Made by a program: the position numbers and the translations under genes. Under the pieces are notes generated by a model that did no database searches, had not been told where the DNA came from, and was given only the letters and a program-made list of their open reading frames with translations. Below are positions 3,868 through 29,464 of a stretch of DNA of 38,252 nt, in pieces (the first letter of the stretch is position 1; the number at the start of each line of letters is the position of its first letter). Source of the DNA: Candidatus Thalassarchaeaceae archaeon (GTDB lineage Archaea > Thermoplasmatota > Poseidoniia > Poseidoniales > Thalassarchaeaceae); contig CBFIAW010000003.1 in assembly GCA_965660655.1 (NCBI GenBank), forward strand, positions 1 to 38,252. The letters run 5' to 3'.

Positions 3868-6800
3868 CTATAAATCTGAATCTGGGACCCATTCCTCAGA
3901 AGCAGCATCCCAAAGCCAACCAGGGTGGTCGTCATACCTCTCTAGAGCTCCCTCTCCCTCTCTTTCCTCGTCACCATAGTCTTCTGGTATCTGTGCTGGG
4001 GTCTTGTACTCCTCTTCTTCGTCATCGATCTCGATTCCTATGAAGCCGGTGAAGTATGCAAGAGCAGCCAATGACAATGTGGCCAATACTGACACCACTC
4101 CAACTAAAGCCCAGTTTATACTTTCAGTTGTTGGCTCCCCCTTACTAATTGGGTTTACTTCCATTGTTTGACCGGAATAGGAGAATTTCGGTATTGATGC
4201 TTCCCCCTTTATTCTCGAAGCAGGCACCCCTAGTTCCCATGTCCCGTCTTCGGAAACAATTGTGTTGTTGACTGGATTACCACCAATCAAAACAGAAACC
4301 TGTTTGCCGGGAAGACCGATGCCGGAATACATGGCCATTTCATTTTCGTCAACCCAAGACTGTTCTGGTTCCTGAATCTCGAATTGTAAGGGGATTACTT
4401 TGAAGGTTACAGGGGCTGAATTGACTCTGGAGTCCCAAGCATCGGTTGCGATGAAAATCACATTGTTCAGAGTCCAAGATTCCATGTCATCGTCGAAAAA
4501 CAACATGTCTGCTGGATCGTATCGGGCGATTCCGTCTGTTCCCACCCCAACGACGAGGGGGTACCGGTCATCCGAGGTAATCGTTGAATCATTGTACACA
4601 GAAATGAATTGTATGTCGTTGTCGATGTCAGAGAAGTAGTCCTTCAGATCAATCTCGACAGTTGTGCACTTGTCGACGGAATTGGAATCTAAATCGCAAT
4701 ACAGGATGTATTCACTCTCCCACTCAGAAGAGTCGAATTCGGGCTGATTATTTCCGGCATTTGGAGGGTTGTCAGCTATGATTGTGACATCGGTCCAACT
4801 GCTGTAATCAATTCCGTCATATGAACGGAATCTGAGTAGGTATTCTGCATCATGACGCAGATCTGTAGTGTCCCACTCTATATCCCACACACCATCTTCC
4901 GAAAATTCACTAGTGCTCGTCTCGAAAACTGAGACGTAATCATTTGAAACGTCCTTCACTTCCAAGTCCACTCTTGTCACTCCACCATCGAAATCCCTAG
5001 CCACTCCGCTCAGGAGGGTATCAATAGAGGAAGAAATTCTGGTTCCCGAATATGGTTGATTAACACTAATTGTGGGTTGGCTATTCCTGTTATCAATAGT
5101 AAGAGTAAGGACCACTGGCTGACACTCGTCCACAACTCCGTTGCAGAAATCAGAATCGGATGCCCAAATTGTGAATGTGTAGGTTGTGAGTTCTCTGGGT
5201 CGGGAGCTGAAGTCCCATTCCCAACTCCATGTACCATCTGAATTGGTCTCAACTGGACTAGTGACTTGGTAGTTTGGACCTGAAATTTGCATATACACTA
5301 GGCCAATGTCGCTGTTGCATTCATCTGGGCACCCATATGGATCTTGAGAATAGCCATCAAAAATTACCGAACCGTCATCGTGCGACGAGAATGAACTTGG
5401 AGTAGTGACGAATATGTTTGGTGCTTGGGTATTGAGCTTTATTGTAAGTGAAACAACCGGGCTGTAGTCTATACCATCAAATGCTTTGAATTCGAATGTG
5501 TAATCTCCTTCCCCTGCCAGATTACTCATGTCAATATTGTAGTACCAAGAGCTGAAGGGCCTATTGAAACGTGTTACTTCGCCCACATCTGTACCGCTTG
5601 TATCGACGGCGTATTCAGCATCCTCCCAAGAACCAGTGAAGGGATTCCTAACCTGAACCTCATGCACGTATCCCCCTTGATCCCATTGGGCTCTCTCATC
5701 GGTGAGATAGCTATTCGCTAGTGTACCATCGTGGGCGCTACCTGTGATATTGACGACCCTGCGATATGAGTGCCCTTCATTCTCTGTGACAATCACTGTT
5801 GGAGCATCGTTCTCCAGGTGTGCGGTCTCTTCGAGTGAGTTCTCCTCAAGGGTAAATACTCCAGAGTAGTAGCCATAACCAAACCTATAGGCAGTATACC
5901 TGTAAAGTGACATTTCTCTTGTTCCTGCTGAGTAGTCGCAACTGGGATCAGCGGTGTCGATTGTCAGATCTCCGTCATTGTCAATCCCGTCGGAGCATGA
6001 GTCCTCGTACTCGTCATCAGCGAACCCATCCGGATTATCGCCCCCACCTAGACCTCTGAAATCAAGATGAAAGTTCGATGGAAGAGCGATCCAGGGGGTG
6101 AAACCATCGCCGCCGGTATTGACTCTGTAGAGGTCGTTTCCAAGTGCATCCTCCACAATAACCAAGGCATCGGAGACCTTTTCTCCGCCAATTAGTGCCT
6201 GGAACCTAACCAGCTCGGCCCTGCTAACCTGTACTGCGAAGTGAGTGGGTTGTGTTGCTATCTTGACCTTGGATAGATCCAAGTTTGTTAAATCTGCGAA
6301 TGTGAAAACGGTGGAGTTGTTATCCATGCTGACGCCCAGCGGGAAGTTTCTCGGAGTCATGTTCTGGCAGTTGTTGCAGTCCTTGACTGGGGTGGGTATA
6401 ATGGCGCCTTGGAATTCATTGTCTGGCCATGCCTCCTGATCTGGCCAAGAAAGTCGGACCGGGTATTCGCCGCTAGGAGGAGATGGGATATACTCGGACT
6501 GGGCAGTTACTGAGCTCTTGGTGACGTTGTAGATAGTCTCAGCTTGGTTCCAATCGTTTTCTGAGAAGTATGCTAGTGACCCGTATTGTTGGGAATCGGC
6601 ATATCCACTATCGTAATTCTTGATTATAGCACCTGTCTTTTGCACGTCGAAGGAATTCCTCTGAATGTCCAAAAGAGACCCAATTGCTCGAATTCCATCA
6701 GCAGTCCCCCCTGCGGTGATAATGTTGTCATACATCGTCACACCCGTCACGTAGGCATGCAATACTGGACATGTGAACTGCCCCCCCCAATTGGTTTCAC

Positions 6801-8133
6801 TACTGCAAGTCCCGGTTCCATCGTATGAGATTGTGTTGTTTGCTAGGTACAGCCTAGAAGCTGCTTGGATTGAATATGAATACATTCCAGCAACAACAGG
6901 AGTCAGAGTGGTGTCGAAAATCGAGTTGTTCTCGGCAATGACGTCGTAAGAGCCGCCAAGCCAGAGTCCGAAATATCCGCCTATTGGCCCAATCTCGTTT
7001 CCGTGGATGTGTGCCTCGCTGTTGTAAACAGAAACCCCAGAGCCAGCTGCTGCCCCCCCAATGTCGTTGTCCCGGAGGTAAATTAGCGCTCCGGCAGATG
7101 CGAATACACCGGCTCCTTCGGCCGTAGCAATTTCATTGTCAGAAATATCGAAGCTGAATGAAGTCCCCCCCACTGCCTTTTTGCCGTTGAGATCGATACC
7201 ATTGCAGTTCACGTTAATTTGTGTGTTAGTGACGCTTCCTGCAGAGGTCCAAAGCCCGATTCCAAAGTCTCCCGATGTTATATCGGCGTTATCAATCTCG
7301 ATGAACGAGTCCTCAGCCCAGATTGTATGGCGTCCGCCGTCTCTATTTCCGCAGCCATTGTCAGTTCCCGTCAAGGAGATGTCAGAGAGGGTGAAGGGGC
7401 TGACTGATGAACCTGAGGAGTAAATCTGCAGTGCTGCTCCAACGATGCTTTTGCTCTCATCGGTACCGACGACGAAATCTCCCCCGTTGAATGACGGTTG
7501 GGCCAGGTTTGTTGTCAACACACTGGAGGTGTTGATCTGGTTGAACGAAAGTTCGGTAAGAGTTGGGCTAGCACCATCAAGAACTAGGGCTCCGTATCGG
7601 AACTCCCCTACTGCGGAGACGTACTGTGGAATTCCCCATGCGCTGTCGAATGTAACGTACCTTAGACCTGTCTCAGAAAGATCGATCGAGCTCCTCATGA
7701 GCACACCCTCGTTGCAGGAGGGGTCGTCTATCCAAATCTCCTGATTGCCGGAACTCATCCCATAGCATTCGCCTGTTGCACTGGAGTTTACTGGTTCACT
7801 CCATCTCAGAGTGATCCTCATAGCGGGGCCGGCATTGGAAGAGGCCCCGCAGGAAGAGGAACCGGCACACAGGCTTCCTCTGACGTCCAGATGCGTCCCA
7901 TTGGGGAACTCTATTGTTGCTCCCGGATTGATGATGAGTTTTGCACCGGGGGCGATTGTTACATCGCCTGTCAGAGTGTGAACGCCGGCCCAAGTCTCGG
8001 TACCAGTGATCGTCCCTGCCGTTGTCTCGTTAGATGCGGAAACGGTACCTGCTGGTAAAGCCAAAGAAAGCAGTATACTGAACAAGAATAGCCCTGTTAA
8101 TGAGATTGATCTCAATTTCTCATCCCGCGCCAT
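3868..8133 (-). CDS. Large cell-surface protein: parallel beta-helix repeats, Ig-like repeats, C-terminal TM anchor
   Basis: Signal peptide; TGDVTIAPGAKLIINPGATIEF followed by Asn-ladder repeats (DNEI, DNDI, GNEI, NNSI, NNTI, DNII); repeated Ig-like units ending AFDGIDYS and SYDGIDYS; TM helix WALVGVVSVLATLSLAALAYF; acidic tail. Confidence 0.85.
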   Translation of the reverse strand: MARDEKLRSISLTGLFLFSILLSLALPAGTVSASNETTAGTITGTETWAGVHTLTGDVTIAPGAKLIINPGATIEFPNGTHLDVRGSLCAGSSSCGASSNAGPAMRITLRWSEPVNSSATGECYGMSSGNQEIWIDDPSCNEGVLMRSSIDLSETGLRYVTFDSAWGIPQYVSAVGEFRYGALVLDGASPTLTELSFNQINTSSVLTTNLAQPSFNGGDFVVGTDESKSIVGAALQIYSSGSSVSPFTLSDISLTGTDNGCGNRDGGRHTIWAEDSFIEIDNADITSGDFGIGLWTSAGSVTNTQINVNCNGIDLNGKKAVGGTSFSFDISDNEIATAEGAGVFASAGALIYLRDNDIGGAAAGSGVSVYNSEAHIHGNEIGPIGGYFGLWLGGSYDVIAENNSIFDTTLTPVVAGMYSYSIQAASRLYLANNTISYDGTGTCSSETNWGGQFTCPVLHAYVTGVTMYDNIITAGGTADGIRAIGSLLDIQRNSFDVQKTGAIIKNYDSGYADSQQYGSLAYFSENDWNQAETIYNVTKSSVTAQSEYIPSPPSGEYPVRLSWPDQEAWPDNEFQGAIIPTPVKDCNNCQNMTPRNFPLGVSMDNNSTVFTFADLTNLDLSKVKIATQPTHFAVQVSRAELVRFQALIGGEKVSDALVIVEDALGNDLYRVNTGGDGFTPWIALPSNFHLDFRGLGGGDNPDGFADDEYEDSCSDGIDNDGDLTIDTADPSCDYSAGTREMSLYRYTAYRFGYGYYSGVFTLEENSLEETAHLENDAPTVIVTENEGHSYRRVVNITGSAHDGTLANSYLTDERAQWDQGGYVHEVQVRNPFTGSWEDAEYAVDTSGTDVGEVTRFNRPFSSWYYNIDMSNLAGEGDYTFEFKAFDGIDYSPVVSLTIKLNTQAPNIFVTTPSSFSSHDDGSVIFDGYSQDPYGCPDECNSDIGLVYMQISGPNYQVTSPVETNSDGTWSWEWDFSSRPRELTTYTFTIWASDSDFCNGVVDECQPVVLTLTIDNRNSQPTISVNQPYSGTRISSSIDTLLSGVARDFDGGVTRVDLEVKDVSNDYVSVFETSTSEFSEDGVWDIEWDTTDLRHDAEYLLRFRSYDGIDYSSWTDVTIIADNPPNAGNNQPEFDSSEWESEYILYCDLDSNSVDKCTTVEIDLKDYFSDIDNDIQFISVYNDSTITSDDRYPLVVGVGTDGIARYDPADMLFFDDDMESWTLNNVIFIATDAWDSRVNSAPVTFKVIPLQFEIQEPEQSWVDENEMAMYSGIGLPGKQVSVLIGGNPVNNTIVSEDGTWELGVPASRIKGEASIPKFSYSGQTMEVNPISKGEPTTESINWALVGVVSVLATLSLAALAYFTGFIGIEIDDEEEEYKTPAQIPEDYGDEEREGEGALERYDDHPGWLWDAASEEWVPDSDL

Positions 8134-8199: not shown

Positions 8200-9444
8200 T
8201 CATGTGTTTTCTTGGGTGATTCCGAATTCAATTTCCACTTGTCTGGACCATTCTGCAGCATCTAGAAGCCCATATCCTTTCTTGGGGTGATGCGTTTCCG
8301 ATTGGCTTGTATCCGATTGGGCTGAATTTGCCAGAGCAACCTTGACGAGATGCATCTCGTGGAGTTCGATTATCCCATTTTCACCAGCAATATGCTCACC
8401 GTGCAATGAGAGAATCAAAGCGAGTGCACCGGTAACCATCACCGTAGAGTCACTTGTCCCCGTGGAGAATGCGTAGGGAGGGTCTCGGTCACTGTCTCTG
8501 CAGGACCAGAGATCCACCCCGGGAGCAAGTATCTCTGGCTTCTGATTAGGGAATGTGCGCTCTTCGCTTGTTTCTGGGTCCACTTCTGCACCAACTGCGC
8601 TGTCCGCCCATGGATCCCCTCCTCTGTCATGGGCTCCGACTGCAATTACCCCTGTTAGGCTAGCCGGGGATGAAACGTCGGAGATATTCTGCTGAGGATC
8701 GCTGTTTCCAGCCGCAGCGATCACGAATATGCCATCTTCTAATGCTTCTCTGACTGCCTCCAGAGTATCGGAAGATGTAGAATAACTTGACCCTGGTGCC
8801 GTCCCTAGGCTTAGGGAGATAATGTCCGAATCCTGTGATATACGACACCACCTAATCGCTTGTGAGACCATTCCCTCGTTCGCAGATTTTCCGTCTGGTC
8901 CGAGGGAAATTGCGATTGACACAGAAACACCGGGAGCAGCTCCAAGAAAAGACCCGTTAGCGACGAGGAGCCCTGCCATTAGGGTCCCATGGCTATTTAT
9001 CCCGATATCTCTGACCGGTGAGTCTTTTTCACTGTAGAAATCACGGAATCCCGCCAATGATATGTGAGTGAGATCGGGATGTGAAATGTCAATTCCTGTA
9101 TCAACAATGCAGACTCTAACTCCTTCGCCCAGATTTCCAGATTCCTGCATTTCCCTGATGCCACTATCCTCAAAAGCCCACTCAGAATCTAGGACCTCAC
9201 CGAGAATGGAGTATATTGAGGGATAGAGAAGGAGAATGGAAACGACCACTGCTGAGAATCCGACTGCCCCCCATGGCCATAAGAATCTCATTATTGGGTT
9301 CAAAGGCCATCTAAGTCTCCTTGCCTCTTCGTCACTGAGGCCATACGTCTCTCCGGGATAACCCGGTGAATCTCTGTCAACAGCCGTTAGCAGGCTAGAG
9401 TCCTCAGGTTCAGGCATCAATTCAAGATGCGGGATTCCACGCAT
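8200..9444 (-). CDS. S8 (subtilisin-family) serine peptidase, N-terminally membrane-anchored
   Basis: Catalytic motifs VCIVDTG (Asp), HGTLMAG (His), AAAGN (oxyanion Asn), GTSDST (Ser), plus KPEILAPG and GYGLLDA. TM segment GAVGFSAVVVSILLLYP near the N-terminus. Confidence 0.9.
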   Translation of the reverse strand: MRGIPHLELMPEPEDSSLLTAVDRDSPGYPGETYGLSDEEARRLRWPLNPIMRFLWPWGAVGFSAVVVSILLLYPSIYSILGEVLDSEWAFEDSGIREMQESGNLGEGVRVCIVDTGIDISHPDLTHISLAGFRDFYSEKDSPVRDIGINSHGTLMAGLLVANGSFLGAAPGVSVSIAISLGPDGKSANEGMVSQAIRWCRISQDSDIISLSLGTAPGSSYSTSSDTLEAVREALEDGIFVIAAAGNSDPQQNISDVSSPASLTGVIAVGAHDRGGDPWADSAVGAEVDPETSEERTFPNQKPEILAPGVDLWSCRDSDRDPPYAFSTGTSDSTVMVTGALALILSLHGEHIAGENGIIELHEMHLVKVALANSAQSDTSQSETHHPKKGYGLLDAAEWSRQVEIEFGITQENT

Positions 9445-9478: not shown

Positions 9479-12400
9479 TTAGAACGGGGCGCTGACTCGT
9501 CTACCTGGTCTTCTCGTGAAGTAGAGGAGTGCTGTAATTAGCATAATCAGGAATGCGTATGCCAGGTACTTCAGGTTGTCATTCTCAACAGAGCTGCTCC
9601 AAAGCTGAGCCTCCAAGACGCAAGAGGCCTTGCCTTCGGACTTAGGAGATGTGCAAGACTCGGACTTTTCATCGAGTAATTCACCGTCTATTGAGAAAAC
9701 GAGCCAGTACGTCTTAGCCTCGGTAAACTGGGTGTAGTCCACCGTGATGTAGAAGGTCGATTCACTCATTGCTGAGACTGATCCACTGGATGTGGAGTTG
9801 ACACCGACCACATTGTTGCACGTGATATCGTAGCAGAGTGTTGCCGACAGGGTGACGCCCTCGGCGTCCACATTTCCAATGTTGGAGATATTGACAGAAT
9901 ATTGCTCGATTTCGCCAAAACTCGCGAAACCTCCTGAGCCACCGATGAGTATTGCCGAATCCCCCACGATAGAAAGGACCGGGGAGTCTGTCTCAATCAC
10001 TGTAGAGCCGGAGTAAGTGTTGTTGTCCTGATCTGAAACGGTGAATTTGATCTCCTCGGCATATGGGGAAGGCAATGCTGTTTGTGCGGAGCGGACTAGA
10101 GTGAAGGTGGCGGTTCCATCGGAGAATGGGGATGCTGGTTGAGTAGTTGGTCCGGCGAATTCCCACCATTCGGAGGAGTCAAATTGGAAGTAGAAGAACT
10201 CATCCGAGTTTCCAGTGTTCTTGAATGGGATCTCTATTGTCACAAGGGTTTCCTCCATGTTGAAGAAGAGGTTTTCAGGCTCATAGATCTCCATTCCATT
10301 GTTTTCTGGGATATCGACTCTCAACTCTAATTGGGTGGAATATCCCTGACTCGTGGATATCTTGACCAGTACCTTGTGCCCTTCTGAGAAGTGATGGGCG
10401 GTGCCGACGTTGGCTGGGACCACTCGGATGCTGAGATCTTCCGTTATGTCTGAATTGGTTAGCCCCATATCGAATGTGGCTGTTTCCAACCATTCCCCAG
10501 TTGAATTCTGGAATTGGACCTTCCAATCAGTTCCGTCGGCACCGGGGATGGTTCCAACCACTGTGTATTCATCGAATGAGTTGTGGCCTTCATACTCAAT
10601 CGATATTGTGAACTCGGCATCCTGATACTTACAGCCGCCGACTGAGTTCGTTGGCAGCCCCGTGCCCAATGGGAAGTCATCTTCCCAGTCTTTGTAACCG
10701 TCGTTGTCGTCATCTGGGTCGGCATTGTCCCCGATCAAGTCCCCATCGTTGTCTGAGGATTCGGTAGGGTCGTTCGGGAATGCGTCTTCGCCATTTATGA
10801 CCCCATCTCCGTCATTGTCGCTAGTGCAGGAAATATCCACCTCTTGAACCTCGATCCTATCAGAGCCTAGGACTGTGGTGATGACGCTCTGCTTCGAGAC
10901 CCTATCGATGCTGAGTGTGTTCAATGGGCTTACCTGTCCCGCTCTAATGGAGACTCCCTTGCCACCGGAGTAAGACACGTTCCTAACGCCCTCATCAATG
11001 TCAAAGCTACTGGAGGTTTGGACCGTCCCCGGCAAGATCAGGAGAGTCAGGATCCCGTCGCTTCCTAGTTCCTCGGACCATGAAATGGAGCCGTATTCTA
11101 TGACTAGGTCGTAATCCTCAACCTCGGTGAGGTCATGCAAACCTCCCTCGAAGTCCAACCAACTAGTATCAAGCATCAGAGTCCCGCCTTCGGTGAGTTT
11201 GGATTCGACTGAACCGCCCTCGACCCCGACTTCAAGAGACTCGATTGAGACTAGGCCAATGCACTCCGATGTAGAGCCATCAGAGGTTGTTGTTGCCATC
11301 GCTACCCAGCTTCCTGGTTGTATCGTGGCAGACCACTCCCCCAATGAGTTTCCAGATACCGTCACTCGGTCTCTGACTATCCCGTGAGAGGGGATAAGCT
11401 CAATCTGCCATCCGCCGCTAGAGATGCAGTTTTGATCCGGATAGGTGATAGTGCCTGAGACCTCGACCTCGCCGGCCGAAATCTCGATATCCTCGTTAAC
11501 TGAGGTTTCTCCGATATCGACTTGTGATGTCTGTGTCCCGAAGCCTTCCTTCTCGGCAGTGATATTCCATGAGCTTTGAGAGGGTAGGAATGTAGACCAT
11601 GAACCGTCCTGGCCCGTGATTATCTCATGACTCTGTAAATCGCTGCTGGTGATGTTAATCGTTGCATTAGCAATTCCTTCAGAGAATCCTGGCAAGTCAT
11701 CGTCATCTAGGTCCCAGAATACCTTGCCGCTAAGTCTGACTAGCATCTGAACTGTCAGGTATGCCTGGTGATCAGGGCCCACGGTTACTCCTGATTCCAC
11801 TAAAGATGTGTTCTCTAGGAACATTCTAACTCCATCTTGGTTGGTTTGGTTGATCTCGACATTCCACAGCCCTGGAACTAGTCTGATTTCGAGTGATTGC
11901 TCGAGTCCACCGACAGAAGTTACGAATGATCCGAGACCTTCCTGTGATGAAATCGTGAGATCAAACGACTCCAAGGTAACTTCGTCTTCTGAAGGGAACT
12001 GAAGGGTCACAGCCAGTGTGGCAAGCTCGGCTGTTTGGAAGTTCAGCCTGGATCCTGCCGATGATTGTGAAACTGAAAGTGACCTTCGTAACCCCTCGAA
12101 GACGCCAGTGTTAGTCTCGAACTCTTCTACGATGACGAGCCAGTCTCCCTCGTTGATGTACTCTACCAACATTCCATCTTCATTGGTTGTGAATGTCTGG
12201 ACCCAACCGCTCTCGGTGTTCTCAAGTTTGATCTCGTGATTGTTAAGAGTCTGGCCACTCTCGTTTCTGAAGGTGATGTTTGCCAGCCACCTTGGCTCGA
12301 ATCCGACGGAACGCTTGACAGTGGATGGTTCAATCTCAACATCAAATATCTCATTTGTGTCATAGAGGGTATCGAAAGGCTCGTCTGCAGAAGAGTTCGC

Positions 12401-15400
12401 CCTCTCAACCACTATTCGGTACCTTCCTGGTTCGAGTGATATCTCTGCCATTCCCGTTTCTATCCACTCGGGTCCGTCAGCCGAAACTGAGTAGCCAGCC
12501 CCATTGGGTGATAATGGTTTGATCTCGAAGGGATAGGAAACAGGGGTCCCGTTTGATGCATTGTTGTCGCCGTCATGGTCGATGAAGAAGTCAATCTGGA
12601 CGGTACTATTCTCTAGCGTCAGGACAAGTAGCTCGATTGTTGGGTCATCTAATGAGGAGTTGATTTCCTTGACTACTGAACTGCTTCCCATGTCATCTCC
12701 TGCGTCCAACGTGAAAGACCAGTTTCCGTAGGGGAGAAGCATGTCGAAACGTCCGAGATCATCCACCTCTTCCCTCCAAACGGCGTCTGTTGTGCCGTCC
12801 AAGTTGTTTGCTTGGGCGAAAATTGGTTGCCATCCCGAGAACCCTTGGTTGTATGTGTTTCCTTCCCGATTAAGGCTCACTTCTCCGAGAACCACTGTCG
12901 AATCTGTGAGTTCGATAGTGATATCTCCCACCTCATCCGTGACTTGGAAGCTAGTCCCATTGGAAAAGAGGCCGCCGGCGCCTACTATCCTTTCCACGGT
13001 TGCTTGGACAAATGCTCCTTGTGGCAGTATGACGCTGAATTCACCCAATGAGTCCGTTGTAGATTTGAGAGTGAAACCTTCCCATTGGAACAAAACCTCT
13101 TGGTTACTGACTCTAGAGAGTTGGGAAATAGTACCTTCCTTGTCTGGTTTGTCAACCACCGTTCCATTTACTACCTGACTGACTAGGAATTCGAAAGATT
13201 CGTTGACATCAACAACCCCTATCGAGATACGCTGCCACAGTTGCTTCTCATCGCTAAGGGTGTAATTGAGTATCCAATCCCCCAGGAGCAGTTCGACGTG
13301 GTATGTTTTTGTCACGTTGTCGAACATTGCTGATACAGGAGTTCTGGATAGGTCCTCCGGGATGAATTGCAATTGCAGGTCGTCTACGCTTGTACCATCG
13401 TCAGTAAGGGTGAATGTGATGTCGGATGTCTGGGGAACTTCTGAAGGGAATGCAACAAGCGATGTTTGGCCTGATTCGAATGTGAAGATCTGGGAAACCT
13501 CTGGGAATCCATCATCGTCGATGTCAACCTCTGCCAAGTAAGAACCGGGTACTATGGGGCCGACCTCGAAAGACCCGCTTTCGTCGGGGATTGCAAAGCA
13601 CGGCTGAGTAACGACTCCCTGGCACTCATCCTGCGAATCATCACTAGAGCCGTTTATTGAGAATATTGCAATCTCATTGGATAATGGTTTTCCGGAGAAG
13701 AGCGAGACGGTGCCCTTGATGGCGCCACCGGAGATTGACACCGGGACCTGGTACTCAGAAGATTCAAGTGCGACTACAAAGGGTTGCGATAGCTCGACGG
13801 GCTCACCTACCCCGAAATCAACTGATACTACGTACTCCCCCGGAAGAACGTCGACAATATGGAATGAACCCGGACTGACCATTGGTCCGCTGAACGTCCC
13901 ATGGCCTGAGAACATCCCAGTTCCGTTTACTGTGCCAAACGTGGTGAGATTCTGTGAAGAGTCTGTCACGAATATTCCCGAGCCGATAAATGTGGCCTGA
14001 GAGAGAACCCTAGTGAATTCGCTAACCCCATAGGAAGTGAACTTGCCTGAGCCGTTAACAGTGCCGTCTATGAGATAACTGCCAATCTCACTAATACATG
14101 CCTCAGAGCCGTTGGGGACTGAGTCTACAGAACAATTTGGGAAGTCTCCGGAAATTGACCCATCGACCATCCCCTTTCCAGAGAATTGACCCTCTCCAGT
14201 AATGCTATGGTTGTCGAAGACAGCCTGAGCGTGGGTACCGGTGAAGTCGTGAACTGAGACTGCCCCCATGCTCTCTACCTTTCCACCCCCTAGGAATGTT
14301 ACTTCTCCGGTTCCAGTGAATTTCAGGCTCTCCCCAACCATGCTCCCATCGGAAGTCATGGAGGCATAGGGTTGGATGGAAACCTCATCTGAAGAAGGGG
14401 TTAGTACGACTTGGACCGAAAGAACGGGTTCTCCATCAAAGTCTAGATCGCCCGACCATGAGAGGATCCCTGAGGCGGTTGATGGAGAGACGGAGATGGG
14501 GGCCTCAATTACCGATTTACCGTTGCTGTGCCCATCTGAACCCGATATGTTCACGATCGTCTCGGAGAGCCAAGTGGACCCGTAGACGTTTCCTAGAATT
14601 CCAGTAACTGGGTTTACATCCCGATTCTGAGAACTCTCAGTGAAAAGTTCTTCCATTGAGTTCCCCATTCCAGTCATCAGTGCAGTTCTGCCTGCTTCCA
14701 AGTCTGGTTGGCCAGAGAATGCGGAGACCCTAATCTTACCAGCAGGGACGGTGAATGAGAAGTGCCCATGCTCGTCTGCTTGGGTACTACCGATGGGAAT
14801 CCAGTATGTCCTAGAGTCGTTGTCGACAACATTTCCATTTGCGTCTGCAGACTCCTCTCCGCTGAATGCGTCCCTCTCAATTAGAATCCTAGCGTTAGGT
14901 ACTGGGCCGATGCCCTCCAAAGAGACAGTTCCCTCTAGGGTGGCACCACTGAAGTATTTCAGAATCTTCACGTTCCTGTTTGAGTCGTAAATCGAACCAC
15001 AGTACCTGTCTGCCTTTCCGGTTAGGGTGAAGTCTGTGACATTGGCAGTCGAAGAGGCTTGTGAACTGATGGAAAATGTCTGGCCATCGGCGTCGTAGGA
15101 GCCAGTATATGCACCCATTGGGATGGTTCCGTTTTCCACTTGGGTCATCTCCCAGGGGCCGCCCGATTGAATCTGCGACCACCCGGACGAAAGGCTGGAG
15201 GAAGACAGCGTGACATTTGACAACTGAGAATTGCCCGCTTTCGTTGATGCAGACCCAGTAATCTGGATTTCTTCGCATGAGGTCCCATTCGTAGGGTCGT
15301 ACCAGTTGGACAGAACAAAGTGGTTCATCATTGCACCTGGGAGGGCCATTGCGCCCTGCAAGTAGCTCCCCGGAGTCCCGGTTAGGGAATTCGGAAGAAT

Positions 15401-18400
15401 CCAAGTCGAGGGCGTGTCGGCATCTCCGACCTGTCCGCTCATCGATGGAAGCCCCAATGTGGAAGTCCCATAGCCGACATATGTCCTTGCGATCATGGTG
15501 TCGAAGAAGCTGTCCAGATGTTGGTAGTCCATGTCTGTCATCTGGATCATATCTTCCCCGGTCGATGCCCCTGATGCCTGAGCCTTCAGGTCGCTCATGT
15601 ACTGGGTTTGGAAATCCTCGGGAGACTTAGGCCCCTGGTTTGTCTCGTAAGTTGTAGTGATGTAAGAGTCTATGTCAAGACCGGAGAGATGGGTAGGAGC
15701 ATGAAAAATCCCAGTAGTCTGCCCTCTGTGGTACGATTTATAGTCCTGGTAATATTTTCCACCTAGAGGATAAAGACGGTTATCAACAGCAAAGTATCGT
15801 ATCTCGTGGTTCCTCGAGGTCGTGCTGCCGTGAGACTCCTCGTAGTCTGAGACCTCGTATGAGTCGATTGAGGTGATGCCATCGTATATCTGTACCAAAT
15901 CATCAAGGGAGAAGGCCGTTATTAGGAAAGCACGAGCCATCCCGAACCTAGCATTGGTCCTGTGGAGTGCGGTCGAGAGGTCATCGTAGTCGTCGATGAT
16001 GTCACGAGTATACCGGTATCCGGACATATCATAGTGACTTACGTCGTCAAAGTCGGACAATTCGAACGCGGATGAGGAACCGCGAGCCTCGTCGAATAGA
16101 GACATTGCCTCGGAAACATTGGTAGTAGGCTCACCGAATATCTCCCCATTTACTAGTACGATATAGGTATCCAAACAGGCGCCGGTGCAAGTCAGACCAT
16201 CTTCATTGAGAGGGTTTCCCATGAGTAGTTCGGCATCTCCGTATTCCGCTACAACTGCCATCAAACGGCCTTCAAGAAAGCTCTTCTCATTGTTGGAAAT
16301 GATTGCCACAAATTCCTGAACCTGTGCCTCAGACATGTGCTCCCCAATGACACTGGTGAAAGGCTCGCCAAGTTGCCCATTGATGCTTCTATCGCCCATA
16401 GCCAAGGTAGTGATGAACAAAGACAAAGTGTCTTCCTGGCCACTTGAGAGGAGCATGGCCCCACTGTGTGGAATTCCAGACTGGAAGTTGTCGGCAACAG
16501 TTGGGTGCTGACCGGATGCTAGGGCCTGGAATCCATAGTCCCACCAAGAAACGAAGGCGGGACGGTCACTGAATGGCGTGTCGCTGTCCTGCTGAGCAAG
16601 CCAGTCGTATGCCTCGTTCCACCCCTGTTGATTGAAACTCGGACCGAAAGTGCCCATGTACCAAAGGCCTGATTCAGGATCACTTGGGTCGTATTGTTCG
16701 CTATTCATGACCGAGAACAGACCAAGCAAGTCCTGCCGCAGAATATCGGGAACTATGTCGTATAGGCTCTGGTCGATGTCGTCCGCTGACCGATCCCCTC
16801 GAGGAATTCCTGCGTCGATCCCGTAAGTCGCATGTTGGGATGTGATAAGGAGCAATACCATAATCATGGCAGGAACTCCGGGGCGTGCCTTAGTGGCGGG
16901 CCACAAGGACTTGAACCGCGTCCTTGGAGTTCCTATTCCAGAGTTCCTCCACACCTTGGCGAATGCTGGCAAGCTTGCGGAGCCCCAAAGCATGGAAATA
17001 CCGATGCCACCAACTGCTGCCATCACTGGCGTGGCGTTGATGATGAATCGACCGGCTGACCACGCCATGTATGACGCGATAATTGTCCAGAGTCCCAGAA
17101 GAGTTAGTTCTGACTTGTTCTTGCGGCTCCCTCTCCACAATAGCAAGAATGCACACCCTATTGCGATTATAGCCACAACTGGTCCATACGATGCGAACAG
17201 AACCCCTCTCTCGGGCGCTTGAGCCTCGCCGATCGTTCCGAATATTTTGTTCTTAGAGAAGTAGAACCCACCGGTGAAGAGAATGTCCCATCCGTTGTAA
17301 AAGCCAGACTCCTGCAGAATGAATAGCAAAGAGAGGATCGACCCGAATAATGTGCTCCCGCCCAAAACCACTAGTAGCCAAGGTTTGTCCCTGAAGGAGC
17401 TTGATACCCATCCCACGGCGAAGGTGAAACCGATGATGTAGAACATCGGTTGCATGCCACTAGGGGCAAAGAGAAGATTCAAGCCTGGCCATGCATAGAA
17501 TGGAGCCGGGACGAGAATGGAGACAAACATCATTTGGAGTGCTGCAGAGGTAAATTGGATACTATCCCTGCTCTTGAAGATGTTAATCGTTACCTGGAAC
17601 GAGTAAGCGAGGAAGAGTATCCCTGGCCCGTAAACGAAGCCTTTCCAACCAAGGGCCATTATTGAGAATGCGATTCCTGACATGGTGGCATTTGCCATCA
17701 AAGACGGGTTCCTCTTCCAAGTCTCCCTCATCCCTGCGATTATGTATAGAGGATTTGGGCTAGTTGTCTTGAAGAGCTTCTTGTGATCAATTTTCTCTAT
17801 GGCCCTGATCCAGAAGTAGAATGCGATGGCCAGGAAAAGCATTGCAAACGAGTCGTGATCAGACATCGCGAAAGTGGATCGGCTCATGTGACCGGGCATT
17901 AAGGCGATCAGCCAGGCAGCGATCATCCCGGCCCTTCTACTGTGTGCGCGTGAGGCTATTCCAGCAACGGGCAGAACGATGAGGGCTCCGTAGATTGCCG
18001 GTAGAGCGGCCATGGACCACCATACAGCCTGATCGGTTGGAATCTCGAGAACCCATGAGAGTGCTATACCGCCAAGAGCTAAGGACCACGAGAAGAGTGG
18101 TGGTCTCGGGTTTATTCCTCCCGATGGATACGCCCTATCATGATCAAAAATCAAGTGGCTTCTCTCAGCGATAATGTAATCGACTACTCGCTTCATGTAC
18201 CAAGGATCCGAACCGCCAGTCATATCCCATAGGCCAGTTCCATTCGCATTCATTGCCGGAATTACGTTCCATGCAATTCTTACAATTAGTGCTATTAGGA
18301 AGGCAAGCGAAACCATCACGACGTAGGAGTTGTCATCCCACCAAACTCTGAATTCGCTCCGGTCCCTTCGAGGGGCAACGTCACCGAAGACGCCTCTGGA

Positions 18401-19408
18401 GGCAAAGAAAAGAGCGAAGAAGTTCATCCAGAACCACAAGAAGAACCATGTGAAAGAACCGATGAAGCCATCGTCCGAGAATATGGAGGGAAGTTCGTTC
18501 CCAATTTCATGGATGTGGCCAATGGTGTACAAGACCCAATTAACTGCAAGCAATGCTCCTAATACGTGCCATCCTTCGGCCCTGAAGAAGGCATGGATGA
18601 AGATTACCAAGGCAGAGAAAGATCCCCATGCCACTCCGATATGACTTTCCTGCGAAAATTCCTGAAGAGTGTCTATCTGCCCTATCCAAATGAGGGGAAC
18701 CATGAAACTTGCAAAAATAAGGGACGAGTAAACGACCACCTCTGGATTCTCTCTAAAGGTTGGCAGGACTGACATGAGTCGCCCCTTACCTCTCTGCTCA
18801 ATTGACCCTCTAAGGCCGATCATTACTACTAATCCCAGTGATATTGAAGATAGCCAGAATGAGAAGAATGCACTGCCAAGTGATTCCCTGGCTGTGTCGA
18901 TGGCGGCTAGAGAGTCATTTTGGGCGATCATTAGTCCGCCCGCGTAGTATGCCGCAAGCCTCATTCCCAGAACTACTGAGAGGAAGGATGCGGATTCCTC
19001 GAATCTATTGGATTCGTTGAGTACAGCTGAGACAAAACCGACGAGGACGAATGTTGCAACGAACATGTGATTGAAGTCGACGGGGTCCACGAAATTAGCG
19101 ATGATGCCGAGGATCGCCGTGACAAGAGTAAGTGTGACTACTCGCAATGATCCAGAATCAAGAGGAATCAGCCACGAGGTTCTCCCAATGCATGCTGGAA
19201 TCAGAACCGAGAGGGAAATCAGGATAGCCCCCGATAAGAAATCTCCACTGACGTCTCTGCCGTCAAGAGAAGATGCCCCGATGGTTAATCCGAGTAGGGC
19301 TAGAGTGATCGCAATGGGAGCGAATAGATTGTTGAATTGGGCGACTTTAGGGGTATCTTTCTCCACTTCCATCCCATCCACCGGACCTATTTGCCAATGA
19401 CTCAGCAT
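9479..19408 (-). CDS. aglB: Giant oligosaccharyltransferase AglB/STT3 with an extra N-terminal membrane domain and a long extracellular repeat extension ending in a TM anchor
   Basis: STT3/AglB motifs in order: SDPWY, YPSGGINPRPPLF, SDHD, TIGE (TIXE), RF, WWDYG (16532-16546), ADNFQ, VKILKY. They are followed by carboxypeptidase-regulatory-like beta repeats, a TSP3-like repeat, a CARDB-like domain, a TM helix and a basic tail. Alternative start ATG 19372. Confidence 0.9.
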   Translation of the reverse strand: MLSHWQIGPVDGMEVEKDTPKVAQFNNLFAPIAITLALLGLTIGASSLDGRDVSGDFLSGAILISLSVLIPACIGRTSWLIPLDSGSLRVVTLTLVTAILGIIANFVDPVDFNHMFVATFVLVGFVSAVLNESNRFEESASFLSVVLGMRLAAYYAGGLMIAQNDSLAAIDTARESLGSAFFSFWLSSISLGLVVMIGLRGSIEQRGKGRLMSVLPTFRENPEVVVYSSLIFASFMVPLIWIGQIDTLQEFSQESHIGVAWGSFSALVIFIHAFFRAEGWHVLGALLAVNWVLYTIGHIHEIGNELPSIFSDDGFIGSFTWFFLWFWMNFFALFFASRGVFGDVAPRRDRSEFRVWWDDNSYVVMVSLAFLIALIVRIAWNVIPAMNANGTGLWDMTGGSDPWYMKRVVDYIIAERSHLIFDHDRAYPSGGINPRPPLFSWSLALGGIALSWVLEIPTDQAVWWSMAALPAIYGALIVLPVAGIASRAHSRRAGMIAAWLIALMPGHMSRSTFAMSDHDSFAMLFLAIAFYFWIRAIEKIDHKKLFKTTSPNPLYIIAGMRETWKRNPSLMANATMSGIAFSIMALGWKGFVYGPGILFLAYSFQVTINIFKSRDSIQFTSAALQMMFVSILVPAPFYAWPGLNLLFAPSGMQPMFYIIGFTFAVGWVSSSFRDKPWLLVVLGGSTLFGSILSLLFILQESGFYNGWDILFTGGFYFSKNKIFGTIGEAQAPERGVLFASYGPVVAIIAIGCAFLLLWRGSRKNKSELTLLGLWTIIASYMAWSAGRFIINATPVMAAVGGIGISMLWGSASLPAFAKVWRNSGIGTPRTRFKSLWPATKARPGVPAMIMVLLLITSQHATYGIDAGIPRGDRSADDIDQSLYDIVPDILRQDLLGLFSVMNSEQYDPSDPESGLWYMGTFGPSFNQQGWNEAYDWLAQQDSDTPFSDRPAFVSWWDYGFQALASGQHPTVADNFQSGIPHSGAMLLSSGQEDTLSLFITTLAMGDRSINGQLGEPFTSVIGEHMSEAQVQEFVAIISNNEKSFLEGRLMAVVAEYGDAELLMGNPLNEDGLTCTGACLDTYIVLVNGEIFGEPTTNVSEAMSLFDEARGSSSAFELSDFDDVSHYDMSGYRYTRDIIDDYDDLSTALHRTNARFGMARAFLITAFSLDDLVQIYDGITSIDSYEVSDYEESHGSTTSRNHEIRYFAVDNRLYPLGGKYYQDYKSYHRGQTTGIFHAPTHLSGLDIDSYITTTYETNQGPKSPEDFQTQYMSDLKAQASGASTGEDMIQMTDMDYQHLDSFFDTMIARTYVGYGTSTLGLPSMSGQVGDADTPSTWILPNSLTGTPGSYLQGAMALPGAMMNHFVLSNWYDPTNGTSCEEIQITGSASTKAGNSQLSNVTLSSSSLSSGWSQIQSGGPWEMTQVENGTIPMGAYTGSYDADGQTFSISSQASSTANVTDFTLTGKADRYCGSIYDSNRNVKILKYFSGATLEGTVSLEGIGPVPNARILIERDAFSGEESADANGNVVDNDSRTYWIPIGSTQADEHGHFSFTVPAGKIRVSAFSGQPDLEAGRTALMTGMGNSMEELFTESSQNRDVNPVTGILGNVYGSTWLSETIVNISGSDGHSNGKSVIEAPISVSPSTASGILSWSGDLDFDGEPVLSVQVVLTPSSDEVSIQPYASMTSDGSMVGESLKFTGTGEVTFLGGGKVESMGAVSVHDFTGTHAQAVFDNHSITGEGQFSGKGMVDGSISGDFPNCSVDSVPNGSEACISEIGSYLIDGTVNGSGKFTSYGVSEFTRVLSQATFIGSGIFVTDSSQNLTTFGTVNGTGMFSGHGTFSGPMVSPGSFHIVDVLPGEYVVSVDFGVGEPVELSQPFVVALESSEYQVPVSISGGAIKGTVSLFSGKPLSNEIAIFSINGSSDDSQDECQGVVTQPCFAIPDESGSFEVGPIVPGSYLAEVDIDDDGFPEVSQIFTFESGQTSLVAFPSEVPQTSDITFTLTDDGTSVDDLQLQFIPEDLSRTPVSAMFDNVTKTYHVELLLGDWILNYTLSDEKQLWQRISIGVVDVNESFEFLVSQVVNGTVVDKPDKEGTISQLSRVSNQEVLFQWEGFTLKSTTDSLGEFSVILPQGAFVQATVERIVGAGGLFSNGTSFQVTDEVGDITIELTDSTVVLGEVSLNREGNTYNQGFSGWQPIFAQANNLDGTTDAVWREEVDDLGRFDMLLPYGNWSFTLDAGDDMGSSSVVKEINSSLDDPTIELLVLTLENSTVQIDFFIDHDGDNNASNGTPVSYPFEIKPLSPNGAGYSVSADGPEWIETGMAEISLEPGRYRIVVERANSSADEPFDTLYDTNEIFDVEIEPSTVKRSVGFEPRWLANITFRNESGQTLNNHEIKLENTESGWVQTFTTNEDGMLVEYINEGDWLVIVEEFETNTGVFEGLRRSLSVSQSSAGSRLNFQTAELATLAVTLQFPSEDEVTLESFDLTISSQEGLGSFVTSVGGLEQSLEIRLVPGLWNVEINQTNQDGVRMFLENTSLVESGVTVGPDHQAYLTVQMLVRLSGKVFWDLDDDDLPGFSEGIANATINITSSDLQSHEIITGQDGSWSTFLPSQSSWNITAEKEGFGTQTSQVDIGETSVNEDIEISAGEVEVSGTITYPDQNCISSGGWQIELIPSHGIVRDRVTVSGNSLGEWSATIQPGSWVAMATTTSDGSTSECIGLVSIESLEVGVEGGSVESKLTEGGTLMLDTSWLDFEGGLHDLTEVEDYDLVIEYGSISWSEELGSDGILTLLILPGTVQTSSSFDIDEGVRNVSYSGGKGVSIRAGQVSPLNTLSIDRVSKQSVITTVLGSDRIEVQEVDISCTSDNDGDGVINGEDAFPNDPTESSDNDGDLIGDNADPDDDNDGYKDWEDDFPLGTGLPTNSVGGCKYQDAEFTISIEYEGHNSFDEYTVVGTIPGADGTDWKVQFQNSTGEWLETATFDMGLTNSDITEDLSIRVVPANVGTAHHFSEGHKVLVKISTSQGYSTQLELRVDIPENNGMEIYEPENLFFNMEETLVTIEIPFKNTGNSDEFFYFQFDSSEWWEFAGPTTQPASPFSDGTATFTLVRSAQTALPSPYAEEIKFTVSDQDNNTYSGSTVIETDSPVLSIVGDSAILIGGSGGFASFGEIEQYSVNISNIGNVDAEGVTLSATLCYDITCNNVVGVNSTSSGSVSAMSESTFYITVDYTQFTEAKTYWLVFSIDGELLDEKSESCTSPKSEGKASCVLEAQLWSSSVENDNLKYLAYAFLIMLITALLYFTRRPGRRVSAPF

Positions 19409-29008: not shown

Positions 29009-29464
29009 ATGGAGTGGACGAAGGTCGATGTCCAATCCGATGAGACCATCATCGATGGAGTAGGCGGATTAGCCGATCTGAAGATGGGTCTGGATACGGA
29101 CGCGGAGTCAATGCACAAAGAGTTCCTAAATTCTCTACCCCATCTCTCGGAAGTTCGGGAGATGCATGGAGTAGTGACCTCTGACATCGAGTCTAGGTCC
29201 CTCAGCGACTCTGTGTCCACCCTAGGAGAATTTGTCTCAGAGTTCGGTGGAGAGTGGTCTGAGTCTGAAATCAGACTCCCATTGCCAGCAGCCAACAGGG
29301 ACGAGTTTACCGTCGACACGAAGAGTGACGGGATTTCCCAGATAGTCCGGATGATAGCACCCGAGAATTTCGGAGGGATGCTCAGGTCATTCCGACTTCC
29401 AAAAGGGAGGTTCGTCTCTGGTGCAATTTGGGAAGGAGAAGTCATCTCCATCAAGTTGGATTGA
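29009..29464 (+). CDS. Hypothetical protein with an Hsp20/alpha-crystallin-like C-terminal domain
   Basis: IRLPLPAANRDEFTV...RSFRLPKGRFVSGAIWEGEVISIKL resembles Hsp20-like beta-sandwiches. Overlaps the convergent gene end by 14 bp. Confidence 0.6.
   Translation: MEWTKVDVQSDETIIDGVGGLADLKMGLDTDAESMHKEFLNSLPHLSEVREMHGVVTSDIESRSLSDSVSTLGEFVSEFGGEWSESEIRLPLPAANRDEFTVDTKSDGISQIVRMIAPENFGGMLRSFRLPKGRFVSGAIWEGEVISIKLD

Follow-up and report, generated by a model that had tools for sequence, protein, structure and literature searches.

AglB is the enzyme that defines N-glycosylation in archaea, and, to our knowledge, all of the structural and biochemical models of AglB come from proteins of about 590 to 1050 amino acids (aa). 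The AglB-L of Archaeoglobus fulgidus (structures 3waj, 3wak, 5gmy, and 7e9s; 868 to 875 aa) is a single-subunit archaeal oligosaccharyltransferase of the STT3 fold family. According to PMC3703281, the A. fulgidus AglBs are 591 to 868 aa long and their soluble domain forms the C-terminal end. The stretch of DNA analyzed here, called the window, comprises 38,252 nucleotides (nt) from a Candidatus Thalassarchaeaceae archaeon (GenBank assembly GCA_965660655.1, contig CBFIAW010000003.1, positions 1 to 38,252) and carries an aglB gene whose predicted product is likewise a single AglB oligosaccharyltransferase, one polypeptide of 3309 aa. The GG(S/N)DPWY, DH(D/H), and WWDYG motifs of the two proteins align, but the window protein has about 3.8 times the length of AglB-L and adds an N-terminal helix bundle of about 355 aa, a beta-sandwich extension of about 1800 aa, and a second membrane anchor. 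The solved chains matched by phmmer have 164 to 875 residues and end with the soluble domain, which, together with the lengths from A. fulgidus, fits an earlier reading of this gene made without database searches (the sequence-only reading), according to which characterized enzymes span some 600 to 1000 aa and lack a further anchor. The interpretation that we favor, at about even confidence, is that the protein is a working oligosaccharyltransferase whose extension, glycosylated and anchored at both ends, would serve the envelope as a scaffold or spacer. The gene and the parts of its product, in the order of the protein, are as follows.

9479..19408, minus strand: whole aglB gene, 3309 codons plus stop, ATG start; the sole STT3 match in the host genome
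18344..19408, minus strand: order-specific N-terminal bundle, residues 1 to 355, with about 7 to 9 predicted hydrophobic helices (hydropathy, conservation)
16619..18343, minus strand: STT3/AglB transmembrane catalytic region, residues 356 to 930, with D401, D517-H-D519, and T725/E728
15296..16618, minus strand: external catalytic-core domain, residues 931 to 1371, with WWDYG and a match to 3vgp
14984..15295, minus strand: Ser/Thr-rich variable linker, residues 1372 to 1475, mostly a genus-specific insert
14654..14983, minus strand: first extension domain (VKILKY..IERDAFSGE), residues 1476 to 1585, transthyretin-like, the best conserved of the extension
13844..14386, minus strand: Gly-rich module with long beta-hairpins, residues 1675 to 1855, with invariant Cys 1759 and 1771 and conserved sequons, order-specific
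10859..13843, minus strand: array of about 9 to 10 beta-sandwich domains, residues 1856 to 2850, with Pfam CarboxypepD_reg at 2577 to 2636 (fold matches)
10574..10858, minus strand: Asp-rich TSP3-type putative calcium-binding insert, residues 2851 to 2945, lineage-specific, with a predicted local distance difference test score (pLDDT) of <50 for 2862 to 2924
9599..10573, minus strand: last approximately three Ig-like domains of CARDB/DUF11 type, residues 2946 to 3270 (weak profiles, model)
9518..9574, minus strand: predicted C-terminal transmembrane (TM) helix, residues 3279 to 3297 (hydropathy peak; modeled helix 3278 to 3298)
9482..9517, minus strand: basic tail RRPGRRVSAPF ending in an invariant Phe, residues 3298 to 3309 (alignment of tails)

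The stop-to-stop frame of aglB (3325 aa) is the longest frame of the host genome, which is 1.13 Mb long and 72% complete. The Pfam STT3 profile (PF02516), the check proposed by the sequence-only reading, matches residues 400 to 800 with 49.4 bits against a cut-off of 24.5, which places the protein in this family. The NCBIfam profile TIGR04154 (archaeo_STT3, the archaeosortase A-associated subfamily) aligns with residues 364 to 989 (E value, 5e-46); its score of 157.4 bits does not reach the curated cut-off of 450 bits, and the protein is thus related to that subfamily and not a member of it. Solved structures matched by phmmer include A. fulgidus AglB-L (5gmy/3waj; E value, 9e-10) and the eukaryotic STT3A/B. 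The roles of the acidic motifs in the first external loop and the membrane core, and of the TIXE-type motif in the fifth loop, are known from the structures of PglB and AglB. GGSDPWY of the window protein (G398-G-S-D401-P-W-Y) aligns with GGNDPWY of 5gmy and SDHD aligns with NDHH, and D401, D517, H518, D519, T725, and E728 do not vary among the 57 aligned members of the order. WWDYG, which had been expected at about residue 955, lies at residues 955 to 959 (nt 16532 to 16546) and is also found in all 56 of the fetched relatives from the order. The earlier statement that all catalytic motifs are intact is right for these four motifs, but the DK or MI motif could not be placed by eye in the poorly conserved residues 1000 to 1100. 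This motif corresponds to the Ser/Thr pocket, and some of its variants are undetectable without a structure, according to the available part of PMC3703281. Since the motifs are intact and no second STT3 copy accompanies them, the core would be expected to transfer lipid-linked glycans to N-X-S/T sites like other AglBs. The ORF (open reading frame) and the Pfam and phmmer matches also bear out the original description of a single 3309-aa ORF with an STT3/AglB core. After residue 813, the sole strong hydrophobic peak of the protein is at residues 3279 to 3297, and a helix is modeled there, in line with the C-terminal TM helix and basic tail that had been noticed from the letters. A TM helix is found at the C terminus in 56 of 56 loci of the order. 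The protein is thus predicted to be anchored in the membrane at both ends, by the STT3 TM core and by this last helix, as the sequence-only reading had proposed.

The order of the host is called Poseidoniales here after database labels. In a whole-genome survey, exactly one STT3 match was found in 148 of 151 genomes of the order, and 115 of these 148 matches lie in open frames of at least 3000 aa (median frame, 3187 aa). Two of the 33 frames shorter than 3000 aa were inspected, and many of the rest lie within a few kilobases of a contig start. One of the inspected frames stops at a contig end; in the other, from a one-contig genome (L003, 7709-7817), aglB occupies two overlapping frames, one of 1603 aa and one of 1624 aa, which jointly align to the whole query with a break near query residues 1600 to 1643. 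This break, the sole internal one seen among the loci examined, reads as a frameshift rather than a two-gene arrangement, and it could be a sequencing or assembly error or a tolerated or genuine split. All 56 fetched loci of the order, which were picked for long frames and come from three families, are complete collinear ORFs of 3124 to 3527 aa. In BLAST comparisons, 16 of 16 order loci align over both the core (36 to 55% identity) and the extension (26 to 45%), and the alignments are broken only at residues 1372 to 1475, in 14 of the 16. A protein search returned 430 clusters (90% identity) at an E value of ≤0.001, the best 120 of which are 1886 to 3338 aa long, mostly 3027 to 3338 aa, and 39 to 93% identical to the query; the three shorter entries among these 120 derive from short contigs. 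The source labels of some clusters name Poseidoniales, marine group II, or Thermoplasmatota. Read evidence came from assembled contigs of four oligo-dT RNA runs of one study, and these cover 24 to 28 of 30 bins at ≥95% identity, in both halves of the gene and without indels; none of the contigs listed spans the junction near nt 14980. The long ORF is thereby confirmed at the sequence level as genuine and not an assembly artifact. A stop or frameshift at the junction and relatives with two separate genes were both looked for: neither the 56 loci nor the RNA-library contigs show a stop or indel, and the frameshifted L003 copy is the only exception to the one-gene arrangement. The survey of AglB length and architecture across Poseidoniales, which the sequence-only reading had called for, shows one collinear design conserved across the order.

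Judged by the aligned ranges of fold matches, the extension of about 1800 aa comprises about 15 domains of about 100 residues each. AlphaFold2 models of residues 1476 to 2560 and 2540 to 3309, both built on 57-row alignments, are almost wholly beta, with pLDDT values of 87.6 and 84.3, respectively. Foldseek and VIA-align searches were run with whole models (1085 residues for 1476 to 2560), and the Gly-rich module was hardly probed by itself; they matched nothing but arrays of several sandwiches and individual domains of the transthyretin-like, Cna-B, or Ig-like type, among them a carboxypeptidase D domain (VIA-align Z, 9.8; root mean square deviation [RMSD], 2.3 Å over 79 residues). The Pfam CarboxypepD_reg profile (PF13620) matches residues 2577 to 2636 with 48.5 bits against a cut-off of 32.3, which places this segment in the family, and PF13620 is found in the C-terminal third of 46 of 57 relatives. 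The segment-wise models and the fold searches agree with the beta-sandwich repeats of roughly 1800 aa that had been read from the sequence. VKILKY had been taken as the end of the core; the extension does follow the core, but VKILKY, at about residues 1480 to 1485, opens the conserved first domain of the extension. The calcium-binding repeat of the sequence-only reading corresponds to an Asp-rich stretch at about residues 2860 to 2915 with a TSP3-type match to NF047638 (E value, 2.5e-4; 20.1 bits versus a cut-off of 350), but the match is weak and below threshold, and the model shows the stretch as disordered; it is a lineage-specific insert that about half of the relatives lack. As for the proposed CARDB-like domain, CARDB (E value, ≤0.01) is present in 12 of 57 relatives and DUF11 in 9 of 57, at the last domains, whereas the window protein itself has no Pfam match to CARDB (PF07705) at an E value of ≤0.1. 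A DUF11 repeat match (E value, 0.012) and a NOMO1-like Pfam match (E value, 0.019) in the window protein are likewise below the family cut-offs. The length and domain order of the extension are fixed across the three families of the order, with gap fractions mostly of 0 to 0.1, and residues 1501 to 1550 have a conservation of 0.62, nearly that of the core. The gap fraction of the linker at 1372 to 1475 reaches 0.92. Two inserts, the Ser/Thr-rich one at 14984 to 15295 and the Asp-rich one at 10574 to 10858 (both on the minus strand), are largely confined to the host genus.

The extension is acidic (D plus E, 15.5%; K plus R, 3.8%) and rich in N-X-S/T sequons. Across the 57 proteins, it has a mean of 43.8 sequons versus 17.9 in shuffled sequences, a 2.45-fold excess, whereas sequons are depleted in the core ectodomain (ratio to shuffled, 0.53); three sequon columns are retained in 53 to 55 of the 57, and N1620, N1828, and N2286 of the window protein are conserved sequons. 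The extension of the window protein has 32 sequons versus 16.9 shuffled (z, 4.0), or 1.78 per 100 aa, while the 95th percentile of the genome is 1.32 and cytoplasmic neighbor proteins have 0.15 to 0.27. These counts suggest that the extension is likely a glycoprotein. Elsewhere in the window, a giant protein with a transglutaminase core (29451 to 38252, minus strand), which is at least 2887 aa long and runs off the window, has 80 sequons versus 29.6 shuffled (z, 12). It is likely a major glycoprotein substrate because its sequon density is the highest in the window. A STAND-type NTPase with TPR repeats (849 aa; 1276 to 3825, minus strand) has zero sequons versus 4.4 expected.

The sequence-only reading had stated that C-terminally extended AglBs occur in Thermoplasmatota, and the survey of this phylum, to which the search for giant AglBs was confined, proves it right. 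The sister order gave 38 matches, and the frames of 33 of them are 2065 to 2388 aa long (typically about 2350 aa). Among 118 genomes of other Thermoplasmatota, 101 have an STT3 match, 46 of them with frames of 2000 to 2846 aa, and the remaining matched frames are mostly 900 to 1650 aa. Outside the order, all 13 of the complete proteins of at least 2000 aa that were sampled end in a TM helix and a K/R tail, one 2616-aa frame is cut by its contig, and three of three proteins of 958 to 1427 aa lack a C-terminal TM anchor. BLAST aligns only the core between orders, and profiles reach further. The profile of the first extension domain (1476 to 1585) matches directly after the core in 15 of 17 AglBs of Thermoplasmatota outside the order, the profile of the next extension segment matches in 8 of 17, and that of the array (1856 to 2560) gives long collinear matches, for example, over 577 profile positions (E value, 3.5e-37); the profile of the Gly-rich module (1675 to 1855) matches in none of the 17. 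By these profile matches, the extension is homologous with that of the 2000- to 2850-aa AglBs of other Thermoplasmatota, and the fusion is therefore ancient: the extension is ancestral in the phylum and underwent elaboration in Poseidoniales. One family of the phylum survey (f7) is represented by 16 small, nearly complete genomes, of which only 3 have a Pfam STT3 match, in two cases within a frame of about 1900 aa; the AglB of this family may have diverged beyond the reach of the profile or may be missing.

Two further features are confined to the order. The STT3 core starts only at about residue 356, and upstream of it are seven hydropathy peaks and perhaps two more aromatic-rich helices. Within the order, E278, W321, and F326 of this N-terminal bundle are invariant, and R135, E137, and R200 are nearly so. 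A profile of the bundle matched only aglB itself in the host genome and nothing in 19 AglB loci outside the order, and a search with the bundle in the Atlas protein database returned unnamed clusters only, at 0.82 to 0.83, below the useful score. A duplication of the STT3 TM region as the source of the bundle was ruled out (hhalign probability, 0.1). In two loci of the third family of the order (L014 and L069), with AglBs of 3401 and 3527 aa and WWDYG at 1205 and 1284, respectively, the N-terminal region is 250 to 330 aa larger than in the other two families. The second feature is the final residue, which is Phe in 57 of 57 sequences and is the sole invariant column among the last 55 residues. 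Of the 33 frames in the host genome that combine a C-terminal TM helix with a basic tail, only AglB ends in F, and the terminal Phe is absent from giant AglBs outside the order. This invariant Phe probably serves in recognition or docking on the cytoplasmic side. No family for PGF-CTERM or archaeosortase signals from NCBIfam matched at an E value of ≤0.1, a search that covered the signals and not the archaeosortase genes themselves, and no residue before the last helix is conserved in the 57 tails. A complex prediction of the C-terminal 55 residues with residues 1 to 930 (57-row alignments) scored 0.00 and was uninformative on docking of the helix.

In the interpretation that we favor, the acidic, sequon-rich extension would lie outside the cell and would itself be N-glycosylated. 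It would return to the membrane through the second anchor and thus form a glycosylated arch of fixed length, which would act as a structural scaffold or spacer of the envelope or glycocalyx and keep the enzyme within the envelope. The location, the glycosylation, and the structural role of the extension are what we infer from the features described above. The scaffold, the substrate-capture arm, and the envelope component that the sequence-only reading had offered as options all survive in their hedged form.

Several observations weigh against this interpretation. The fold matches, being generic, say nothing about function. Identity to the query is lower in the extension (0.25 to 0.37) than in the core (0.5 to 0.77), and the sequence of the C-terminal TM helix is unconserved save for the final Phe, which fits a plain anchor, yet leaves the Phe unexplained. 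Several lineages of Thermoplasmatota have AglBs of about 900 to 1430 aa without the anchor, and the extension is therefore not indispensable for the enzyme. One genome (L003) has a frameshift about 130 to 170 residues past the junction of core and extension. In addition, the RNA-library contigs cannot prove transcription, strand, or a single continuous transcript.

A broader form of the favored interpretation, which we put forward tentatively and regard as improbable as a whole, is that AglB would be a self-contained envelope-building unit fused to its own main substrate. The arch would then be the principal surface scaffold of Poseidoniales and many other Thermoplasmatota, a spacer or anchor setting the width of the space outside the membrane, and the N-terminal bundle and the cytoplasmic Phe would couple it to a partner. 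If this were true, one glycosylation enzyme would double as a major architectural protein of archaea that are among the most abundant in the surface ocean.

The rival explanations, in descending order of likelihood, are a cleaved polyprotein, then a built-in accessory subunit or capture cage, and last an adhesin. The first of them may involve the gene next to aglB.

8200..9444, minus strand: membrane-anchored S8 subtilase, 34 nt downstream of aglB on the same strand

The subtilase has no cleavable-looking signal; about 45 residues are followed by a single hydrophobic helix at about 57 to 80, as would fit an external protease held by a signal anchor. Its ATG is preceded, at a distance of 6 nt, by a GGGGG stretch. 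The gene order in Poseidoniales is purD, aglB, S8 subtilase, and a large beta-helix protein, with purD present in 56 of 56 loci, the subtilase in 56 of 56 (downstream, on the same strand, and 32 to 362 nt away), and the beta-helix protein in 54 of 56. purD, which is functionally unrelated, is equally linked, and therefore synteny alone shows no function. In the fetched flanks of loci outside the order, the subtilase was not detected. The beta-helix protein of the window (1421 aa; 3868 to 8133, minus strand) has a signal peptide and the C terminus ...HPGWLWDAASEEWVPDSDL, and a 1495-aa frame on another contig (C29) has a near-identical C-terminal motif. Another motif, ...GWTM(D/E)QW..YG..W, is common to the C termini of two more large frames. 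Such motifs, as far as their sequences suggest, may be order-specific sorting or anchoring signals.

A polyprotein is the least unlikely of the rivals, although we still regard it as unlikely. The product would be cut after the core, perhaps within the Ser/Thr-rich linker by the adjacent S8 subtilase, and the extension would be released as a surface glycoprotein of its own with a C-terminal anchor, for instance, a stalk or an anchor of the S-layer; the fusion would then only secure cosynthesis and immediate glycosylation. The variable, low-complexity linker at 1372 to 1475 followed by a sharply conserved domain start is what such a cut would predict, and the signal-anchored subtilase at 32 to 362 nt in every order locus, the one genome with the gene in two frames split near the linker region, and the S-layer stalk protein SlaB among the tied top fold matches (Z, 9.9; RMSD, 23.6) all point the same way. 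Gene order is weak evidence, however, given the equally constant purD; the giants outside the order keep the fusion although their fetched flanks revealed no subtilase, most of the linker is missing in other genera, and no cleavage motif was identified in the protein.

Somewhat more doubtful is a built-in accessory subunit or capture cage, in which the extension and the C-terminal helix would fold back on the enzyme and hold newly translocated unfolded polypeptides close to the active site or couple the enzyme to the translocon. Eukaryotic oligosaccharyltransferase accessory subunits combine a lumenal beta-sandwich with a single TM helix. The conservation of the first extension domains nearly equals that of the core, and these domains are ancestral in the phylum, which suggests contact with the catalytic domain, and the fixed length and domain order and the restriction of the terminal Phe, N-terminal bundle, and Gly-rich module to the order are also consistent with such a role. 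However, no oligosaccharyltransferase accessory subunit is among the best 50 fold matches, the TM helix lacks conserved residues for specific packing, and 15 domains go far beyond the needs of a local cage.

Less probable again is an adhesin or binding arm, an array that would bind particles, polymers, or other cells, a role that many long proteins with Ig-like repeats have, and would merely be carried by AglB. Adhesins usually vary in repeat number and have a patchy distribution, but this array is collinear, of near-constant length, and found in essentially every genome of the order. The membrane anchors at both ends would restrict its reach, and no known ligand-binding domain was detected with Pfam. 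In its favor, the fold matches include pilins, Cna-B/SdrD adhesins, and a calcium-stabilized ice adhesin, some lineages have the TSP3-type insert, and the available part of PMC6461757 stresses adhesion traits for the order, with this gene unmentioned. That the long ORF is a chimera of the assembly or reads through two genes is supported by a single frameshifted relative and nothing more and is practically negligible against 56 of 56 independently assembled, complete, and collinear loci from three families, the 430 protein clusters, of which the best 120 run from 1886 to 3338 aa, and RNA-library contigs without indels.

A search of the full-text literature, with subscription papers outside its scope, found no paper on a giant, doubly anchored AglB architecture, and no paper joining AglB with Poseidoniales or Marine Group II was found in the full-text literature, in agreement with the earlier statement that no function is known for this architecture. 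In the available part of PMC9723583, oligosaccharyltransferase is merely named among differentially transcribed genes; the available parts of PMC3750248, PMC5155288, and PMC11407970 do not mention the size of AglB, and PMC6461757 contains no "glycosyl" term. No study of the giant AglBs of Thermoplasmatota outside the order was found in the literature. The proteins are already in public databases under generic names, and what is new is the architecture of a known kind of enzyme. We regard the sequence-only reading as accurate on the whole; the N-terminal bundle, the terminal Phe, the sequon enrichment, the lineage specificity of the putative calcium-binding insert, the conserved subtilase neighbor and gene order, and the phylum-wide homology are additions to it. 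The sole AglB of the host and those of whole lineages of its phylum are two to four times larger than the enzymes that serve as models and have a second anchor. If the extension is structural, it would offer a first way into the cell envelope of archaea that are still uncultured.

Among known systems, two proteins not fused to an enzyme resemble the extension. NOMO1, of the eukaryotic BOS complex, is a rod of transthyretin- and Ig-like domains with one C-terminal TM helix and a short tail and is proposed to be a spacer. Many of the giant relatives have NOMO1-like families in their Pfam annotation; unlike the window protein, NOMO1 is not fused to an enzyme, and the likeness is one of analogy and not of membership. 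SlaB, the S-layer anchor of Sulfolobus acidocaldarius (8qox_B), has beta-sandwich domains on a membrane anchor at the C terminus. It ranks first among the VIA-align matches (Z, 9.9), with an RMSD of 23.6 Å over 172 residues, and is tied with many single transthyretin-like domains at a Z of 9 to 10; it is a separate protein without sequence relation to AglB. The giants labeled Aciduliprofundum sp. MAR08-339 (2081 aa) and Methanomassiliicoccus (about 2150 aa) share with the window protein the core, the CarboxypepD_reg-type array, and the C-terminal TM helix with a basic tail. The giants of other Thermoplasmatota are homologous to the window protein in the first extension domain and in parts of the array, but they are 450 to 1200 aa shorter, have neither the N-terminal bundle nor the Gly-rich module, do not end in the Phe, and have no adjacent subtilase. 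Aciduliprofundum and Methanomassiliicoccus are genera that we take to be cultured, and the role of the extension in AglBs of the same design is therefore open to experiment.

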